From: a virus
Lineage: Duplodnaviria > Heunggongvirae > Uroviricota > Caudoviricetes
IMG/VR virus record: IMGVR_UViG_2698536506_000007
Reading direction: 5' to 3' (one strand)
DNA length: 18,447 nt
The position numbers were made by a program, and so were the translations under genes. Each line of letters opens with the position of its first letter. Positions within the stretch are counted from its first letter, which is position 1. Positions 1,307 through 11,138 of the stretch are shown in pieces. The notes below the pieces were generated by a model. That model was not told where the DNA came from. It worked only from the letters and a program-made list of their open reading frames with translations, and ran no database searches.

Positions 1307-3772
1307 TTAAAAATCAACCTGACTCGGGATCAGTTTTTGCCAGATAGCTGAAACTTGTTTTGCCTGGTGGCGGGCATCATCCAGTGCATTATGGCGTACG
1401 CCTTCGAACGGAATAGCTGTTCTGGCATCGAAGTCTATGGCTTTTCCCAGATCAACGATTGTGCGCACATCGCGATCGTTGCAGTAACGCCACGGGCAGG
1501 GGATACCCTGCCGTTCATATGAACGGCGTAAAATCACGTTGTCGAAGCTGGCTCCATTTCCCCAGACCCGAACAAAAAATTCACCGGAGTTTTCGTCGAT
1601 AAATTCCCGCAATTGCAATAGTGCATCATCTAACGGAATTTGATTTACCAATATTGCAGATCTGGCCTCGCTGGACTGCGCCAGCCACCATTCGATTACG
1701 TCACCATCGGGAGTAGCACCTTTGTCCATTGCGTCAACCAGACTGATGACAACATAAAATATCGGTCCGATTTCCCCGGTCTGCGGATCGAAAAACACTG
1801 CAGCAATAACTACGATGGGCGCATTGCTGTTAATTCCCATCGTTTCAAGGTCGATCATCAGATGGTGCCATACCCTGCTGGTGGATGTGATAATGTGATG
1901 ACTGTTCACCGTAATTAAGGGATCTGCCGCCTCGCCAGTTTTACTATCGCTGGTGTGATGCTGATCGTTACCAGCATTCTCATTGTTCGGATGTTCAGCG
2001 CCTTCCATTTCCTCCGGATCATTTTCCTGAGTTTCAGCCTGATTCTCTTCATCGAATGTTTCCTGGTATGTTGCGTCGCCCATCACCGCGCCACAGTCAG
2101 GACAGTTGCCGCCGCCGGTCTGACCGCAGGTGGTGCAGACTTTTTCCGGTTCTTGTTGCTCTTCTGGTTCAGGCTGTTTCGTTTCTGGCTCGTTTTGTAA
2201 CGCATTTGGGCTGTTCTGTTCCGCTTTCTGGTCGTTTTGTTCCGATTCGGGCAGGTTCTGGTTCACAGAATCGCGGGTTTCAATCCCCTTAACCCATTTC
2301 GGATCATTCGGGTCGCTAATTCCGTCAACGAACTCACCGCGATGGACTGCCAGTATTTTGTCGGCATCAGGCTGGTTGATATTGGCTGCCTGCATAATTT
2401 TGTTTACTTCGTCAGCGGTAACTTTTACCTGTTTAACTGGATCTACCTGTTCCTGAGTATCCAGCGATTGCGTGTCCTGGTGATGTTCAGTTGTATCCGG
2501 CTCCATTGCTTCGGCCGTTGCCTGTTCATCTGCCATTGCGTCAGACGGTTGTGATTTTTCCTCATTATTTTTTTCTTCTTCTGTTTCGCGTTCAGCAGCC
2601 AGTTCGCGGTTAACTTCTTCCAGGATATCTTTTTCCGGTGTATGTCGTGCAGCAGTGAGAGTTTCCTTGCTGGGGTTCTCGTGATCAGTCTCCGTTAAGT
2701 GGGCGTTGATATACCCCTGAAGGCGTCCCGGGTAGTGATAAAACTCAGGGTGAGCGCTCCGGATAAGTGCAAAAATAGCGGCGCGGGAATAATCCAGAAT
2801 ACCCGGGGTTGCGCGAAGTGCTGCGGACCATTCTTTGAACGGACTTTCTCTTTTCAGGACGATTTCTTTTGCGCGACGATAAACGCTGCCCGGAATTTCA
2901 TAAATATTAAAATCCATCGGAAGTGTGGCTGCTGCAATCTCCACATCCAGCGTATCGAAGGTGTGTACTAAATTCGGATTGCGATCGGTTTTGTTCCCGC
3001 CACCGGCATTAGCACCGGAAGCCGTGCGGGTGATACGCGAAACACGATTTCCTTTCATCCACTCTTTTGTCAGCAGACCGCGATCGGTGTAGTCGGCGTC
3101 CAGGTATGCTTCGATAAAAGAGGTTATCAGTCCCAGGTCCGAATTTACGGGGGCGGGGAAAACTTTGTCAGTGTCTCGCACCAGTTTGTGGAGATCGCGA
3201 ATCTCCAGCGGTTCGAGTTGCGCTGCTTTATTTGAGATAGCCAGCGCGGTAACGGCGGGAAGTTTTTCATCCTGTGCGTTATGTAATGCGCGCAGTTCGT
3301 CCCGCGAAACGTGTGTGATCGGTTTTTCGCTGCCGTGCTGTGCCAGCCATCGAACAGGCAGAATCTGACCTGAAACCGGCAGGAGCATGTTCTCCTCAAT
3401 CTCAGTCATGTCTTCGCCGTTGACGTTGGTATTGTCAGTGTTGGCTGGTTTGTCCTGCGCAGAGGGTGAGGGCGCGATAAATACCATTGTGATGCCATCT
3501 TCCCCGCCTTTTTCGTAACGGTTACAGAATTCAGTATCAAACACGCCTTCAGGTGGAAGGTCATTCACAACGGGTAAATGGACGCGGACGGGTTTTTTAA
3601 AGTCGTCTTCATCATAATCGTTGTCATCCATTGCGGTAATGCAGCGGGAGATGGCAACAGATAATTTTTTTGCTGTAGTCCAGTAAAAACCACCTTTAAT
3701 TCCAAGGCGTTTTCTGACTTTGTCATTTTTTGCTTCACAATATAATGCAAATTCTTCTTTATCAGTGCTCAT
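1307..3772 (-). CDS. Large early-left nuclease (821 aa) of the kind annotated as exodeoxyribonuclease VIII; C-terminal DEDDh/DnaQ-like 3'-5' exonuclease domain, central acidic low-complexity region with a CxxC..CxxC zinc ribbon
   Basis: Long ORF with SD (GAGG 8 nt upstream of the ATG at 3770-3772). C-terminal motifs MIDLETMG (Exo I, D-x-E), GNGASFDNVIL (Exo II) and HNALDDARH (Exo III, H-x4-D). CTTCGQTGGGNCPDCG zinc ribbon. Position equals recE/exo in lambdoid prophages. Confidence 0.8.
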   Translation of the reverse strand: MSTDKEEFALYCEAKNDKVRKRLGIKGGFYWTTAKKLSVAISRCITAMDDNDYDEDDFKKPVRVHLPVVNDLPPEGVFDTEFCNRYEKGGEDGITMVFIAPSPSAQDKPANTDNTNVNGEDMTEIEENMLLPVSGQILPVRWLAQHGSEKPITHVSRDELRALHNAQDEKLPAVTALAISNKAAQLEPLEIRDLHKLVRDTDKVFPAPVNSDLGLITSFIEAYLDADYTDRGLLTKEWMKGNRVSRITRTASGANAGGGNKTDRNPNLVHTFDTLDVEIAAATLPMDFNIYEIPGSVYRRAKEIVLKRESPFKEWSAALRATPGILDYSRAAIFALIRSAHPEFYHYPGRLQGYINAHLTETDHENPSKETLTAARHTPEKDILEEVNRELAAERETEEEKNNEEKSQPSDAMADEQATAEAMEPDTTEHHQDTQSLDTQEQVDPVKQVKVTADEVNKIMQAANINQPDADKILAVHRGEFVDGISDPNDPKWVKGIETRDSVNQNLPESEQNDQKAEQNSPNALQNEPETKQPEPEEQQEPEKVCTTCGQTGGGNCPDCGAVMGDATYQETFDEENQAETQENDPEEMEGAEHPNNENAGNDQHHTSDSKTGEAADPLITVNSHHIITSTSRVWHHLMIDLETMGINSNAPIVVIAAVFFDPQTGEIGPIFYVVISLVDAMDKGATPDGDVIEWWLAQSSEARSAILVNQIPLDDALLQLREFIDENSGEFFVRVWGNGASFDNVILRRSYERQGIPCPWRYCNDRDVRTIVDLGKAIDFDARTAIPFEGVRHNALDDARHQAKQVSAIWQKLIPSQVDF

Positions 3773-7226: not shown

Positions 7227-7277
7227 GCCTGATGCTTGTTCCAGAAAAGGAACGCATCAGGCAGTTTTGTTTTTCTG
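7227..7277 (+). terminator. Rho-independent terminator of higBA, overlapping the 3' end of the convergent repressor gene
   Basis: Long hairpin GCCTGATGCTTGTTCC-agaaaa-GGAACGCATCAGGC followed by AGTTTTGTTTTTCTG. Confidence 0.55.
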
Positions 7278-7649
7278 CCGCAGTAACTCTTCAAGTTTCC
7301 GTTTATAGAAATCGCGTTTTTGCTCCATATCTCGAATGATCTGCTCTGTGTCGCTTTGAGGTAACTCATCTAAAAGCGATATGATTTTTCGTTGTTGTTC
7401 TGTTAGTTGCAGTTGGTTGTTATTACTGGATACAGCCATCTTATCGCCGAGAGTTTCTTCTTCCATAAAGAACCAATGGACGGGATGTTGTGAGAGCTCT
7501 GCTAATTTTTCCAGTTTATCCATTCTTGGCATCACGCCTTTCAACCAACCTTGCACGGATTGGGGTTTCACACCAAGACGTCTTCCCAGCTCTGACTGGT
7601 TTATATTCAATTCCTGCAACACCTGCTGAAGGCGTTTTACAAAGATCAT
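7257..7649 (-). CDS. Phage repressor, short HTH type without an S24 peptidase domain (about 130 aa)
   Basis: HTH motif NQSELGRRLGVKPQSVQGWLKG; divergent from the cro-like gene; SD GAGGGG upstream of the ATG at 7647-7649; C-terminal half looks coiled-coil-like, with no Ala-Gly/Ser-Lys autocleavage module. Confidence 0.8.
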   Translation of the reverse strand: MIFVKRLQQVLQELNINQSELGRRLGVKPQSVQGWLKGVMPRMDKLEKLAELSQHPVHWFFMEEETLGDKMAVSSNNNQLQLTEQQRKIISLLDELPQSDTEQIIRDMEQKRDFYKRKLEELLRQKNKTA

Positions 7650-7703
7650 CACCACCCCTCATAAGCTAATCTCGTAATCCTACAGAAAAAATTGATAGGC
7701 GGC

Positions 7704-7775: not shown

Positions 7776-8048
7776 ATGCAAAGAAGTACTCAAGTGAAAA
7801 TCCTGTCGATAATGAGCCAATCAGAATTAGGGCGTCGTCTTGGTAAAACACCACAAACCATAAGCGGGTGGTTTAAAAAACGAGTTCCTGCAGAGGAGGT
7901 TATTCCAGCATGTGAGGCGCTTGGATGGGGAGTAACTCCGCATGAATTGCGCCCTGATAAATACCCTAACTCAACGGACGGTTTACCTGTTGGATATAAG
8001 GCTAACACACCAAATGCACCGGAGTTGATTCATGAAAATCAAGCATGA
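7776..8048 (+). CDS. Cro/YdaS-like HTH protein (90 aa)
   Basis: HTH SQSELGRRLGKTPQTISGWFKK; divergent from the repressor; strong SD (GGAGGGG); C-terminal ...TPHELRPDKYP resembles the YdaS family as recalled. Confidence 0.8.
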   Translation: MQRSTQVKILSIMSQSELGRRLGKTPQTISGWFKKRVPAEEVIPACEALGWGVTPHELRPDKYPNSTDGLPVGYKANTPNAPELIHENQA

Positions 8049-8457
8049 ACACATCCGCATGGCGATGAATGCCTGGGCACATCTGAACGGTGAAAAAGTT
8101 CCGGCTGCGAAAATTACCAAAGCGTATTTCGAACTCGGTATGACGTTCCCGGAATTGTACGACGACAGCCATCCGGAAGCCCTGGGCCGTAACACCCAGA
8201 AAATTTTCCGCTGGGTGGAGAAAGACACTCCTGATGCGGTTAAAAAAATTCAGGCGTTGTTACCAGCGATCGAAAAAGCGATGCCGCCTCCGCTGGTGGC
8301 CCGAATGCGCAGCCACAGTTCCGCTTATTTTCGGGAGTTGGTAGAGACGAAGGAACGGCTGGTGAAAGATATTGATGATTTCGTTGCATCAGCGATCGTT
8401 CTGTTCGATCAGATGAATCGTGGTGGCCCGGCAGGAAACACTCTGGCTGTGCATTAA
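8032..8457 (+). CDS. YdaT-like protein (141 aa)
   Basis: Starts MKIKHEHI as I recall for Rac YdaT; overlaps the cro/YdaS-like gene by 17 nt; the Cro-like then YdaT-like order matches Rac. Confidence 0.65.
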   Translation: MKIKHEHIRMAMNAWAHLNGEKVPAAKITKAYFELGMTFPELYDDSHPEALGRNTQKIFRWVEKDTPDAVKKIQALLPAIEKAMPPPLVARMRSHSSAYFRELVETKERLVKDIDDFVASAIVLFDQMNRGGPAGNTLAVH

Positions 8458-8470
8458 TTGGGTAATAAAT

Positions 8471-8980
8471 ATGAGTAATGACAAAAAATTGACACTGAGC
8501 GTTTACGAAAACAGTCCGCACATCTGGCGTGGCGGTTTATCTGATGTGGAGCTGGCAGAGTGGTTGATACATAAAGCTAATGCGCTGCTCTGGCGTTTGT
8601 CAGCCAGAGAACAGCGCAAGGAAACCAGAATAAAGCTGGCTGATGCAGAAGCGTGTGCCGGGCTTATTGAGGATTATACAAATCTTGGTATTTCTTCAGC
8701 AGAGAGTGATCCCATTCAGCCTCTGAGCAGGGAGTCAATCCAGCACGCTGGTTGTATGGCACATCTTGTAACTGCTCGTCAACATGAGGTGGGTATTGGA
8801 TCACTTTCGGTGGGATATTCGCTGATTCCAGAGCTGGTTGAAGCAAGAAAATCAGTTCAGAAAAAGAGAGATGACGCACTTCAATTATTGAGAGATCACT
8901 ATGGCGCGATACCAGAATGCGAACAGCGTCGATACCCTGAAGGTTATGAATGGATGCAGTCTCTTTTTGAAGTTCGCTAA
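8471..8980 (+). CDS. Hypothetical protein (about 169 aa)
   Basis: ORF-track ORF 8420-8980 trimmed to the ATG at 8471 (MSNDKKLTL...); sits between the YdaT-like and replication genes. Confidence 0.6.
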   Translation: MSNDKKLTLSVYENSPHIWRGGLSDVELAEWLIHKANALLWRLSAREQRKETRIKLADAEACAGLIEDYTNLGISSAESDPIQPLSRESIQHAGCMAHLVTARQHEVGIGSLSVGYSLIPELVEARKSVQKKRDDALQLLRDHYGAIPECEQRRYPEGYEWMQSLFEVR

Positions 8981-9197
8981 TCAATATGTCGAGACGAAGG
9001 TATGTTTCGGCGCGCAGCCAGGCTCTGTAATCCGGGAGCATTTCGGGGCTGTTACACCAGCGGTTTGTTGCTGCAACATTTAATACATGAGCCTGATAAA
9101 GGCTTTTCAAAAAATACATGTCGAACCTCCTCTGGTTCTGTTGATTGGGAACCACAGATTATATCCGGAGGAAGGTTCGGCACCAGATGAGGTAGCC

Positions 9198-10307
9198 ATG
9201 CGTGATTACGCAAAAGTTTCTCCGCGATTCTGGCTGGGAGAAACGGGGAGAGAACTTAGAAAGGCGGGTGCAGAAGCGCAAGTTGTTGCTTTTTACCTGA
9301 TGACATCCCCTCACGCAAATATGCTGGGTTTGTATTACCTGCCAGTTTTATACCTTGCTCATGAAACCGGGCTTGGTCTGGAAGGGGCTTCAAAGGGGCT
9401 TAAAAGGGCTGTTGAAGCTGGTTTTTGTAGCTATGACCATGATGCCGAGATGGTCTGGGTCCATGAAATGGCAGCCTGGCAGGTTGGGGAAACGTTGAAG
9501 CCAGGCGATAACCGTTGTGCAGGTGTCAGGAATGAGTATGCATCATTACCTGAAAACGCTTTTCTGTCAGCGTTTTACGACAGATATAAAACGGATTTCC
9601 ATCTTGATGTGAGGCGGAATAATAGCCGAAATTCGGTAAGGGGCTTCGAAGGGGCTTTTAAGGGGCTTCGAAGCCAAGAACAGGAGCAGGAGAAAGAACA
9701 GGAACAGGACAAAAACACTATGGTTCATGGCGAAAAAAACACCATGAACCAGGCAGGGGATGTTCAGACCGTAAATTCTGGTCAGCCAGCAGGCACGACA
9801 CCGGAAGCCGATTCGGCGTATGCGCTGAAAGCCGATTCGGGCGCTGTGCAGCAGGCGATGACCGCAGGGTCGGAGCAATCACACCAACTGCAGCAGCCTG
9901 AAGCCGATTCCGCCATTCAGCGGGAAGCCGATCGGGTAGTCCCGGAAAACACCGGGCGGCCTGTGGGACGAGTGGATTATCCGGATGTGTTCGAACAGGT
10001 CTGGCGGGAATACCCGTTGCGTGCCGGGGCAAACCCGAAGAAATCCGCATTCAGTGCCTGGAAGGCCAGATTGCGCGAGGGGGTGCCACCAGAGACCATG
10101 CTGGATGGTGTGAGGCGTTACGCGAGATACCTGGCGGCGACCGGGAAAGCGGGAACGGAATTTGTTCAGCGAGCGACGACGTTTTTTGGACCGGACCGGA
10201 ATTTTGAAAACCCCTGGTTGCTCCCGGTAAGCGGCACGAACAACCAGCGTTGTGTGAATCACATTTCTGAACCGGACACCGAAATTCCACCAGGGTTCAG
10301 GGGATAA
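9198..10307 (+). CDS. Putative replication initiator/replisome organiser (about 369 aa; alternative upstream start at 9087)
   Basis: Position after cro/ydaT; contains two iteron clusters in its coding sequence (ori-within-gene arrangement as in lambda O); C-terminal ...FEQVWREYPLRAGANPKKSAFSAWKARL... resembles phage replication proteins; preferred ATG at 9198 has GAGG 5 nt upstream. Confidence 0.65.
   Translation: MRDYAKVSPRFWLGETGRELRKAGAEAQVVAFYLMTSPHANMLGLYYLPVLYLAHETGLGLEGASKGLKRAVEAGFCSYDHDAEMVWVHEMAAWQVGETLKPGDNRCAGVRNEYASLPENAFLSAFYDRYKTDFHLDVRRNNSRNSVRGFEGAFKGLRSQEQEQEKEQEQDKNTMVHGEKNTMNQAGDVQTVNSGQPAGTTPEADSAYALKADSGAVQQAMTAGSEQSHQLQQPEADSAIQREADRVVPENTGRPVGRVDYPDVFEQVWREYPLRAGANPKKSAFSAWKARLREGVPPETMLDGVRRYARYLAATGKAGTEFVQRATTFFGPDRNFENPWLLPVSGTNNQRCVNHISEPDTEIPPGFRG
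9384..9411. repeat. Iteron cluster 1: three GGGGCTT-type direct repeats at 11-bp spacing
   Basis: GGGGCTTcaaaGGGGCTTaaaaGGGCTG (9384-9411). Confidence 0.5.
9649..9677. repeat. Iteron cluster 2: three GGGGCTT direct repeats at 11-bp spacing, followed by a purine-rich tract and a 10-bp inverted repeat
   Basis: GGGGCTTcgaaGGGGCTTttaaGGGGCTT (9649-9677); downstream CAGGAGCAGGAGAAAGAACAGGAACAGGACAAAAACAC and TGGTTCATGG..CCATGAACCA (about 9718-9750). Confidence 0.5.
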
Positions 10308-10352: not shown

Positions 10353-11138
10353 ATGGAAACGTTGATTGATACGTTAAAAGCGATGCAAAAGGTGACGTGC
10401 ACTGAGCTTGCTACCAGTTTGGGCATTGCACCGGCTGAGGCGATTAAAATGTTGCGGGAGTACGAAGAGCAGGGAGAAGTTGTATCGGTTAATGGTTACT
10501 GGTCTGTTTCAGAACGACAAAGTGGCGTGAAAGAAAAAACAGTGCCGGTGTGTAAAGCGGAAAGAAAATCCCGCATGGTGGTCAGCAGAAAAGACCGTGA
10601 GCCACTGAATCGCTGCGACATCCTGTCCACACTTGCTCATGGTGGGGCAATGACCACCGCTGAGATTGCAATTGCTGTGGGGCGTGCTGATTGCGTCAGG
10701 TCGCTGGTTTCTGCGATGGAAAAGCTTTGCCGCGATGGCATGGCGATTAAGCTGGGACAGGGGAAGGGGTGTAAGTGGATGCTGGTAAAAGAAACCGGGG
10801 AAAATTTACCAGCAGAGCCGAAATTTGTATCGGTAGCGAAAACTGATGGTAAAGCCTTTCCTCAGCCAGCGGGGGTTGCGTTACCAGTACAGGAGGTTGC
10901 AACACAGGAAGATATTAAAACAGAAACTGTGGCGGACATTGTGCAGTCGCTGCCATCGTTTACCGAAACGCGTGCGAATGACCTGATTTTACCATCGCTG
11001 CACATGGCAAACCGCGAACTACGTCGGGCGAAAAATCATGTCCGGAAGTGGGAGCGAGTCTGCGCGGCGCTGCGGGAGCTTAACAAGCACCGGGATATTG
11101 TACGGCAGATGAATTGTTCCAGAGAGGATGTGAAGTGA
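10353..11138 (+). CDS. Hypothetical protein (261 aa), possibly with two winged-helix-like segments
   Basis: Long ORF after the replication gene; the winged-helix suggestion is from composition and pattern only. Confidence 0.65.
   Translation: METLIDTLKAMQKVTCTELATSLGIAPAEAIKMLREYEEQGEVVSVNGYWSVSERQSGVKEKTVPVCKAERKSRMVVSRKDREPLNRCDILSTLAHGGAMTTAEIAIAVGRADCVRSLVSAMEKLCRDGMAIKLGQGKGCKWMLVKETGENLPAEPKFVSVAKTDGKAFPQPAGVALPVQEVATQEDIKTETVADIVQSLPSFTETRANDLILPSLHMANRELRRAKNHVRKWERVCAALRELNKHRDIVRQMNCSREDVK

Follow-up and report, generated by a model that had tools for sequence, protein, structure and literature searches.

In phage SPP1, the initiator G38P binds repeats within gene 38, its own gene, which also contains oriL. 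In phage lambda, ori too is placed midway within the initiator gene, where the linker between the DNA-binding N-terminal domain and the C-terminal recruitment domain of O is encoded, and there tandem initiator-binding repeats are followed by a strand-asymmetric purine/A-rich tract and then by an inverted repeat (PMC7466680). Within the early rightward operon, the O gene follows cro and cII, and in lambdoid hybrids the N-terminal specificity module moves with its own iterons. Here we describe a region with a like order of elements in an 18,447-bp stretch of lambdoid prophage DNA, the whole of which we refer to as the window. We consider, with a probability of about 75%, that this region is a vegetative (theta-type) iteron origin bound by the initiator in whose gene it lies. 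From sequence comparison, the origin would work like lambda ori and O, yet by sequence it falls outside the O family.

The replication initiator gene (9198..10307, + strand) encodes 369 amino acids, predicted to form a winged-helix N-terminal domain, a disordered linker and a C-terminal helical domain. A sequence-only reading of this DNA had called the frame initiator-like, and several results bear this out: firstly, the product matches the PHROG profile phrog_1701 with E = 3e-145 (residues 1–369 on profile positions 1–323 of 323), the profile's label, "DnaD-like helicase loader", being an annotation of predicted function; secondly, the gene sits where a lambdoid prophage has O, with a cII-like gene on one side and the nin/RusA/Q region on the other; thirdly, the N-terminal domain (approximately residues 1–140) is modelled with confidence as a DNA-binding fold of the winged helix-turn-helix type. 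The match to a second PHROG, phrog_6251 ("replisome organizer"), is weak (E = 3.6e-4). GenBank labels relatives of the gene "replication protein O" or "primosomal protein I", and RefSeq labels for the replication module go no further than "DNA-binding protein" or "hypothetical protein".

The initiator family, which comprises 1,901 clusters (50% identity, E ≤ 1e-30) across Proteobacteria, has no Pfam model. Unlike lambda O, the window protein gives no match to Pfam Phage_rep_O even at E up to 10; unlike the SPP1 G38P type (Pfam Phage_rep_org_N, PF09681), here represented by Escherichia phage Tritos, its N-terminal domain has no Pfam match; and hhalign probabilities were 0.1% against lambda O and 0.3% against the Tritos N-terminal domain, comparisons of limited sensitivity in that both templates were single sequences. 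It likewise has no sequence family match among iteron plasmid initiators (RepA, pi, TrfA; RepA_N), and it differs from them in having one winged-helix domain instead of a WH1–WH2 pair and in having its sites within the gene instead of upstream.

Two clusters of 11-bp head-to-tail units lie within this gene on the + strand. Iteron cluster 1 (9381..9402) consists of two units, GAAGGGGCTTC then AAAGGGGCTTA, and iteron cluster 2 (9637..9669) of three, TAAGGGGCTTC, GAAGGGGCTTT and TAAGGGGCTTC; the family unit consensus is T-N-GAAGGGGCTTC-N-AA. The + strand of the window carries all five exact copies of AAGGGGCTT, which begin at 9382, 9393, 9638, 9649 and 9660, as compared to a mean of 0.20 in shuffled sequence, with five copies reached in 0 of 200 shuffles, and the tandem GGGGCTT-N4-GGGGCTT was found three times against 0.11 expected. 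A chance origin of the repeat is rejected. Tandem Repeats Finder places 11-bp arrays at 9382–9408 and 9638–9673 which, together with the copy positions, uphold the spacing that had been proposed; the distance between the clusters, put at about 265 bp, measures 256 bp from start to start.

The proposal of three GGGGCTT copies in each cluster holds for cluster 2, where all three are exact, and fails for cluster 1, which has two exact copies and a degenerate, unconserved third. This putative third unit, AAAGGGCTGTT, contains the degenerate copy AAAGGGCTG at 9404–9412, which relatives lack, and is followed by a conserved GAAGC element, the stretch as a whole being 9403..9421 (+); in 96% of homologues, codon E73 here reads GAA. 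Cluster 2 runs into a 12-bp perfect palindrome, GGCTTCGAAGCC (9664..9675), made up of the last iteron together with GAAGCC, a truncated inverted unit; in nearly all homologues the cluster ends with the element GAAGCCAAGA, whose codons AGC (100%) and CAA (88%) are fixed.

Lack of conservation in homologous genes had been named as grounds for abandoning the origin reading, and the result is decisively the opposite: both clusters are kept at the same gene positions in ~140 loci of Gamma-, Beta- and Alphaproteobacteria, with a signature at the level of DNA. Of 138 distinct homologous genes, 110 carry cluster 1 as two forward copies, with 110 of 112 counted spacings equal to 11 bp, and for cluster 2 this spacing is kept in 143 of 158 neighbouring copy pairs of the same gene set. 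The sequence-only reading had also noted that the repeats encode GLEGASKGL and GFEGAFKGL, so that DNA and protein repeats coincide. Both peptides are present in the translation; the protein repeat is, however, a by-product of the DNA repeat and no independent observation.

The converse, that the DNA repeats are a mere by-product of a constrained peptide, G-L-E-G-A-S-K-G-L, would fit the near-invariance of ETGLGxEGASKGL, which is predicted to lie in one of the folded domain's helices. As 11 is not a multiple of three, however, successive copies fall in different reading frames, three in all, and synonymous codons are fixed far above background. Among some 80 species-level homologues (81 diverse genes, 51–79% identical), the codons of cluster 1 are GAA in 73/73, GGG in 75/77, GCT in 65/79, AAG in 70/70, GGG in 68/77 and CTT in 73/80, against background use of 0.21 for GGG, 0.18 for GCT and 0.13 for CTT; the sole spacer base, the third base of the Ser codon, is free to vary. 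An unbiased synonymous scan of 105 conserved codon columns found the strongest constraint at codons 62–68, 73 and 151–160, which are the two clusters.

Cluster 2 provides a further argument, since it encodes RGFEGAFKGL in the predicted disordered linker and flips between orientations: in the 138 distinct genes it is forward in 62, reverse in 49 and mixed in 9 (with 2–3 copies; ++ 46, −− 30, −−− 19, +++ 16, mixed 9), while 14 further genes have a recognisable cluster 2 end with at most one copy and 4 are without that end sequence. A change from GGGGCTT to AAGCCCC converts the peptide from EGASKGL to EAPSKPL and leaves the duplex motif as it was, and codons 151–160 are strongly fixed. The flips, the codon fixation and the unbiased scan effectively refute the peptide by-product, which we regard as scarcely credible. 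The repeats are thus shown to be conserved as duplex DNA, independently of the encoded protein. Three signs suffice to recognise protein-binding DNA within a gene from its sequence: a repeat period indivisible by three, synonymous codons that are fixed, and an orientation flip that switches the peptide (EGASKGL/EAPSKPL). Parallel variant units in the two clusters hint weakly at co-variation (Fisher p = 0.03, uncorrected for phylogeny), and we treat such concerted variants as anecdotal.

Directly after cluster 2 comes a purine-rich (CAR-GAR)n tract (9670..9717, + strand), which encodes the Gln/Glu sequence QEQEQEKEQEQDK within the disordered linker. The purine-rich tract expected at this place is indeed conspicuous, positions 9670–9714 being the most strand-biased 45-mer in the window (84% purine). 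That it would be easily unwound is at most weakly supported, its duplex instability ranking in the 16th–30th percentile for the window at an A+T content of 56–61%; in high-GC hosts the tract is about 55% G+C. Nearly all loci have it, as do about 82% of the 144 top-ranking family representatives, and its length differs by hexamers between near-identical prophages (variants in L014 and L015), with tandem arrays detected. We presume that the tract is an unwinding or single-strand binding region.

Just past the tract lies an inverted repeat, TGGTTCATGG(CG)-A7-(CA)CCATGAACCA (9721..9751), a candidate hairpin or cruciform. The 10-bp inverted repeat of the sequence-only reading is perfect, with arms at 9721–9730 and 9742–9751, or can be taken as 12 bp with one mismatch; folded as a single strand, the DNA gives −9.8 kcal/mol (z = −5.2). 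An inverted repeat of at least 7 matched bp lies no more than 45 nt from the tract, the end of which was set from protein sequence (Gln/Asp-type relatives included), in 35% of 103 distinct homologues as compared to 4.8% of control windows (Fisher p = 1e-18), and it recurs here in versions whose arms have 29 different sequences. Read on the minus strand, the hairpin precedes a T-rich run and has a terminator-like score; a promoter scan found promoter-like and terminator-like sites to be no commoner than in shuffles.

The inverted repeat is also the first element of a C-terminal module common to phages with other N-terminal domains. In Tritos, the C-terminal half of the gene from about 9712 onward is 94% identical to that in the window and the N-terminal domain is different, with its own repeats: two clusters of GTCAC(G), 260 bp apart, with an A-rich repeat after them and also the inverted repeat of the window. 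The two-cluster plan and the repeat spacing of about 10–11 bp are thus alike in the G38P type and in the window, whereas the repeats themselves, GTCAC(G) and GAAGGGGCTTC, differ.

A module junction at about 9712, right after the tract, is what would be expected if GAAGCC-(CAR-GAR)n were a crossover joint with the hairpin as an antisense terminator, and the terminator-like hairpin with the T-rich run behind it would suit the same account. At the level of RNA, the two clusters could pair in the mRNA, cluster 1 (forward) and cluster 2 (reverse) being mutually complementary in most distant relatives. A crossover joint leaves the phased 11-bp units and the codon fixation of cluster 1 unexplained, however; the terminator-like tails are not kept in relatives; and Rfam contains no family matching the region. 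Conserved mRNA pairing is rejected, as both clusters are forward in the window and in 61 other genes, where pairing is lost and the duplex motif kept. We therefore hold an RNA-level or recombination function to be highly improbable.

Binding of the units by the initiator could also be mainly regulatory (in autoregulation, as a roadblock to transcription, or in controlling copy number through cluster pairing, for which the incA and incC iterons of P1 offer a comparison), with the origin elsewhere. The clusters are separated, one of them lying in the coding sequence of the folded domain and far from any unwinding tract, and variable orientation is to be expected of sites that loop or pair. Set against this, the conserved purine tract always follows cluster 2 directly, often with the hairpin, and does so in the linker, as in lambda ori. 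Moreover, the window contains no further repeat cluster, only an isolated GGGGCTT at 655, and the flanks of 79 five-kb loci seldom contain the motif (0.40 per kb), the density of the motif in the two cluster windows being 55 times that in the rest. We consider it unlikely that the origin lies elsewhere. Cluster 1 may have an auxiliary or regulatory role and stand outside the minimal origin. The layout that the sequence-only reading had likened to lambda stands: iterons, purine tract and inverted repeat lie in the interdomain linker, parallel to the annotated lambda ori.

As for the protein that binds the units, the modelled N-terminal fold is of the kind found at iteron origins, a sequence-specific double-stranded-DNA-binding domain in the cognate initiator. 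Cluster 1 encodes E62–L68 (EGASKGL), which is the start of its predicted recognition helix, H60–73. The linker (approximately residues 146–255) is disordered, with pLDDT below 50 at residues 146–149, 151–163 and 168–170. Because the N-terminal domain's own coding sequence contains the motif, joint inheritance of the two is automatic and no proof of the binder, and a host factor, the DUF1627/HTH product or the cII-like protein might bind the units instead. We regard this as quite improbable: the gene's own product is predicted to be a winged-helix protein, the Tritos-type N-terminal domain carries its own, different repeats, and the neighbouring genes change between relatives (DnaC-like ATPase or DUF1627 downstream, differing repressor modules) while the motif stays constant. 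We know of no host factor with this unit consensus across Alpha-, Beta- and Gammaproteobacteria.

The extreme C-terminus of the initiator, QRCVNHISEPDTEIPPGFRG (10245..10304, + strand), closely matches that of E. coli DnaT; a query with the C-terminal fragment returned PDB 6aep, 2ru8 and 9zbt with E = 0.002–0.006. Full-length similarity to DnaT (NCBIfam PRK02854) is ruled out, as the match is confined to the last 22–25 residues (17.8 bits, where the cut-off is 201), and the label "primosomal protein I" on relatives derives from this DnaT-like tail alone. As judged from sequence similarity, the tail is possibly a motif on which proteins of the host primosome or of helicase loading dock; a paper on the DnaT preprimosome is silent on what the C-terminal tail does. 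The AlphaFold2 model of the C-terminal domain is poor (pLDDT 48), and the homologues found for it are mostly fragments and frameshifted pieces.

In many relatives a DnaC-like ATPase gene lies immediately downstream of the initiator gene; in the window this place is taken by a DUF1627 gene, and profile matches of the window genes revealed no helicase loader gene adjoining the initiator gene. This prophage may therefore be replication-defective.

Taken together, the elements suggest how an iteron origin of this kind might fire. Following transcription from the early rightward promoter, the winged-helix domain of the initiator would bind the units, with the 11-bp phasing setting adjacent monomers along roughly the same helical face. 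Protein on the three sites of cluster 2, possibly bridged by looping or wrapping to the two sites of cluster 1, 256 bp upstream, would distort the adjoining strand-asymmetric (CAR-GAR)n tract, and the inverted repeat may then be extruded, or may fold when it has become single-stranded. The helicase would be recruited by the C-terminal domain and the DnaT-like tail that it bears, in many relatives via the downstream DnaC-like ATPase; with no DnaC-like gene in the window, host DnaB–DnaC would be used.

The likeness to lambda ori is one of plan, and the differences are several. Lambda has four 18–19-bp dyad-symmetric sites about 20–24 bp apart in a single cluster, and related Stx-phage origins have six iterons, whereas the window has 11-bp head-to-tail GGGG-core units in two arrays, in groups of 2 and 3, one array coding for the predicted recognition helix. 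Unlike in lambda, cluster 2 is variable in orientation across the family; the tract is a Gln/Glu-coding repeat and not especially A/T-rich; and there is no P-type partner, relatives carrying the DnaC-like ATPase and the window neither.

These differences can be cast as a distinct origin design used by this very large initiator family, with a self-encoding iteron pair, a freely inverting cluster 2 and the (CAR-GAR)n tract, in place of an A/T-rich one, as unwinding element, a proposal that we put forward as tentative and rather doubtful. Were it true, the iteron pair of cluster 1 would itself encode the recognition helix by which it is read; specificity and site would then be the same DNA and forced to co-evolve, which would explain the near-invariance of EGASKGL. 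The trinucleotide-periodic purine tract would be a single-strand binding track, an idea comparable to DnaA-trios, and the C-terminus of the initiator would mimic the DnaT tail to capture the host DnaB–DnaC machinery.

Searches of the literature by motif sequence returned unrelated primer matches, and those on iterons, replisome organisers and prophages turned up no account of this origin. Among PLSDB matches, none is a plasmid that uses the gene as a genuine replicon; the matches are very large replicons or mis-assigned pieces of chromosome or prophage (e.g., NZ_CP069825.1). The module is the "Eru4" module of Stx1-converting phages, which has been typed as such with its proteins termed "of unknown function" and with no mention of an origin or iterons (PMC8951638). 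In work on Stx phages, the replication module type is viewed as something that may affect how stable lysogens are and how virulent the host is (PMC8951638; PMC8044961), and a defined origin would open replication and copy-number experiments on these phages. For a poorly annotated replication module, the proposed origin and iteron consensus are now concrete and testable.

The module is found in 469 of 5,426 complete E. coli genomes, many O157:H7 strains among them. The Eru4 gene of Shigella phage 75/02 Stx is a full-length homologue of the window gene, with 76% DNA identity and 78% protein identity in the N-terminal domain. It is followed by a DnaC-like ATPase gene instead of the DUF1627 gene of the window; cluster 1 is conserved in it, and cluster 2 is present and inverted.

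The window represents the early region of a lambdoid (Rac-like) prophage: an integrase (1–1020), a RecE-like exonuclease (1307–3772) and a repressor (7257–7655) lie on the minus strand, followed on the plus strand by a Cro-like gene (7776–8048), a cII/YdaT-like gene (8032–8457), the initiator gene (9198–10307; 369-amino-acid product), a gene encoding an HTH and DUF1627 (10353–11138; Pfam E = 7e-66), RusA (15716–16081) and a Q-like antiterminator (16072–16767). By this gene order, the initiator gene occupies the place of lambda O. Its product matches phrog_1701 from end to end (E = 3e-145) and is modular, with separate PHROGs covering its N- and C-terminal halves; no Pfam domain was detected in it. 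GenBank labels its relatives "replication protein O" or "primosomal protein I", while RefSeq, which marks no origin here, uses "DNA-binding protein" or "hypothetical protein".

Five exact copies of AAGGGGCTT occur in the 18.4-kb window, at 9382, 9393, 9638, 9649 and 9660, all on the same strand and within the initiator gene (shuffle mean 0.20; five reached in 0/200 shuffles), and the phased pair GGGGCTT-N4-GGGGCTT was observed three times against 0.11 expected. From these positions, cluster 1 holds two exact units, after which comes a degenerate third (AAAGGGCTG, 9404–9412); cluster 2 holds three exact units and terminates in a 12-bp palindrome (GGCTTCGAAGCC, 9664–9675). The consensus unit is T-N-GAAGGGGCTTC-N-AA. 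The sequence-only reading had described two clusters of three repeats at 11-bp spacing, about 265 bp apart: the spacing was borne out by the phased pairs and by the arrays called by Tandem Repeats Finder (9382–9408 and 9638–9673), and the count holds for cluster 2 but not for cluster 1, while the distance measures 256 bp from start to start. Further downstream, at 9804–9932, GAAGCCGAT occurs four times (one copy being AAAGCCGAT), spaced by 24, 72 and 24 bp; every copy is in frame and codes for (P)EADS in the linker, and GAAGCC is common to these copies and the truncated inverted unit at the end of cluster 2. When one mismatch is allowed, GAAGCCGAT is no more frequent in the whole window than chance predicts, and the copies may be a protein repeat or weak half-sites.

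We compared the gene with homologs from 80 viral contigs and 80 species-level genome loci, the latter from Gamma-, Beta- and one Alphaproteobacterium, with N-terminal domains 51–79% identical to that of the window. Both clusters are kept and 11-bp phased across 138 distinct genes, while the sequence flanking them diverges freely: cluster 1 has two forward copies in 110/138 genes, spaced by 11 bp in 110 of the 112 counted, and cluster 2 has two or three copies, with 11-bp spacing in 143 of 158 neighboring pairs. Because 11 is not a multiple of three, successive units fall in different reading frames. The codons under cluster 1 are almost fixed among 81 diverse genes: Glu is GAA in 73/73 cases (background 0.52), the first Gly GGG in 75/77 (0.21), Ala GCT in 65/79 (0.18), Lys AAG in 70/70 (0.65), the second Gly GGG in 68/77 (0.21) and Leu CTT in 73/80 (0.13), whereas the unit's spacer position, the third base of the Ser codon, varies freely. 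An unbiased scan of all 105 conserved codon columns within the first 190 codons placed the strongest synonymous constraint at codons 62–68, 73 and 151–160, corresponding to both clusters and the AGC-CAA element closing cluster 2; the sole further strong peak was codon 2.

The orientation of cluster 2 points the same way. Sixty-two genes carry it forward (GGGGCTT), 49 in reverse (AAGCCCC) and 9 mixed; the remainder have one copy, none, or no recognizable end-of-cluster sequence. On inversion the encoded EGASKGL becomes EAPSKPL and the duplex motif is unchanged, and the reverse form is the commonest among the 144 best family representatives. Across 5-kb loci, GGGGCT/AGCCCC reaches 21.8 per kb in the cluster windows versus 0.40 per kb elsewhere (55-fold). 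These comparisons show that conservation of the repeats acts on the DNA and not on the protein; a by-product of a protein repeat is excluded by the frame shift, the fixed synonymous codons, the orientation flips and the enrichment. Conserved RNA pairing between the clusters is likewise excluded, since pairing is lost wherever both are forward, as in the window.

Cluster 2 is followed by a purine-rich (CAR-GAR)n tract (9670–9717), as the sequence-only reading had noted: 9670–9714 is the window's most purine-biased 45-mer, at 84%. Its description as easily unwound did not hold up, as the tract lies at just the 16th–30th percentile of the window for duplex instability. A Gln/Glu-coding purine tract 3' of cluster 2 is found in nearly all loci and in ~82% of the top 144 representatives, and its length differs by hexamers between near-identical E. 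coli prophages. In two of these prophages (L014 and L015), whole GAACAG/GAGAAA blocks are inserted relative to window 9676–9717 (+6 and +24 nt), which looks like slippage and indicates that tract length is tolerant. In Citrobacter/Klebsiella/Raoultella-type relatives (loci L038–L086), the tract is Gln/Asp-coding (gene nt ~461–520; for example ~2961–3020 of L084) and carries ~2.9 GATC (Dam) sites per 60 nt versus 0.13 elsewhere in the gene, recalling oriC and P1 oriR, whose unwinding regions are rich in GATC; no GATC occurs in the tract of the window itself.

The 10-bp inverted repeat previously noted after the tract has perfect arms at 9721–9730 and 9742–9751 and, as single-stranded DNA, folds at -9.8 kcal/mol (z = -5.2). 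Among 103 distinct sequences, 35% show an inverted repeat with 7 or more matched bp within 45 nt past the tract; control windows taken from these genes do so in 4.8% of cases (Fisher p = 1e-18). There are 29 different arm sequences: what recurs here is structure rather than sequence, and it is not universal. On the minus strand (9751–9721), a T-rich run comes after the inverted repeat, which scores there as intrinsic-terminator-like (12 pairs); it could stop leftward (antisense) transcription ahead of the iterons, and the T-rich tail is not kept in distant relatives.

An AlphaFold2 model built on an alignment of 81 sequences was confident for the N-terminal domain (mean pLDDT 86.5; 93–98 at residues 11–140) and predicted a winged-helix topology (helices 25–36, 50–57 and 60–73; strands 45–47, 77–80 and 85–88). 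Cluster 1 encodes E62–L68, the start of the third helix, which we infer from the model to be the recognition helix. The stretch coded by cluster 2 and the tract is predicted to be mostly a disordered linker (pLDDT below 50 at residues 146–149, 151–163 and 168–170), and the C-terminal domain gave no reliable model (pLDDT 48). The last 20 residues (QRCVNHISEPDTEIPPGFRG, window 10245–10304) are closely similar to the very end of E. coli DnaT at its C-terminus, the sole basis of the "primosomal protein I" label. A database protein fragment (P0163) has the same tail on an otherwise different sequence, so that it looks like a portable docking peptide.

Escherichia phage Tritos and like phages are 94% identical to the initiator gene from window position 9712 onward, inverted repeat included, and have a different N-terminal half, annotated as a replisome organizer. 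In Tritos, another repeat, GTCAC(G), recurs every ~10–11 bp in two clusters within this half; 260 bp separate the clusters, and three ACAGATAAAGAT units come after them. The N-terminal domain and the repeats are thus swapped together and the architecture of two clusters, tract and hairpin retained. Joint exchange of this sort would be predicted were the repeats read by the N-terminal domain; binding of the candidate sites by some other protein seems very improbable. Similarity to Tritos, Evi, vB_EcoM-606R7 and others begins abruptly after the tract (~9712), and the conserved tract may also be a crossover point for exchange of N- and C-terminal modules.

The layout resembles lambda ori, in which iterons inside O precede an A-rich, purine-biased tract and a palindrome. 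Lambdoid phages have their origin, comprising iterons and an AT-rich tract, in mid-O, and the minimal unwinding-competent fragment contains two iterons and this tract (PMC7466680). The units differ: here they are 11 bp, head-to-tail and in two clusters, whereas lambda has four 18–19-bp dyad-symmetric sites in one array. Neither a Pfam hit nor hhalign similarity links the initiator to the lambda O family, and by sequence it is not a member of the G38P or DnaT families. The earlier proposal of a lambda-like prophage origin is supported by the phased 11-bp units kept as duplex DNA at two gene sites, the predicted winged-helix domain and the lambda-like order of elements within the disordered linker. 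We consider the region a putative initiator-bound origin, with a probability of roughly three in four; a chiefly regulatory role for the candidate sites is unlikely, if slightly less so than binding by another protein. The origin apparently works like lambda ori/O, yet its initiator and iteron family are unrelated to O and seemingly uncharacterized.

In the proposed mechanism, the winged helix would bind the units, placing neighboring monomers roughly on one DNA face; the cluster 2 complex, possibly bridged to cluster 1, would destabilize or capture the adjacent purine/pyrimidine-asymmetric tract; the hairpin may form after strand separation; and the C-terminal domain and DnaT-like tail would recruit helicase. 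Strain R1, PhiR5_2 and 75/02 Stx have a DnaC-like ATPase gene immediately 3' of the same initiator, where the window has the DUF1627 gene, so host DnaB-DnaC would serve in this prophage. A scan of the ~25 larger window ORFs turned up neither a helicase nor a loader, so the prophage may depend on the host's DnaC or be defective in replication.

The family is very large (1,901 clusters at 50% identity with E ≤ 1e-30; 4,063 with E ≤ 1e-10) and medically relevant through Stx phages. Its members include isolated phages of Escherichia, Shigella, Klebsiella, Acinetobacter and Ralstonia, and 469 of 5,426 complete E. coli genomes, including many of O157:H7, carry the N-terminal half of the coding sequence at ≥90% identity. 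In Shigella phage 75/02 Stx, the homologous module has been typed as "Eru4", its proteins described as "of unknown function" and no origin given (PMC8951638). We found no published description of these iterons, in a search that covered subscription journals thinly, so an earlier one is possible. This kind of origin is familiar and the comparative evidence unusually clean; what is unusual is that iterons fall within the codons of the predicted recognition helix and that a trinucleotide purine tract replaces an A/T-rich element.

Between the cII-like and initiator genes, an ECs1072-family phage-associated gene (8664–9155, minus strand; NCBIfam E = 7e-30) overlaps a plus-strand ORF (8420–8980) matching phrog_8304 (E = 1.6e-118). 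Likely only one is real; the RefSeq annotation of strain R1 has the minus-strand ORF. A tandem repeat at 2174–2260 (period 42, 2.1 copies, 21-nt sub-period) lies within the RecE-like exonuclease gene, on the opposite strand.
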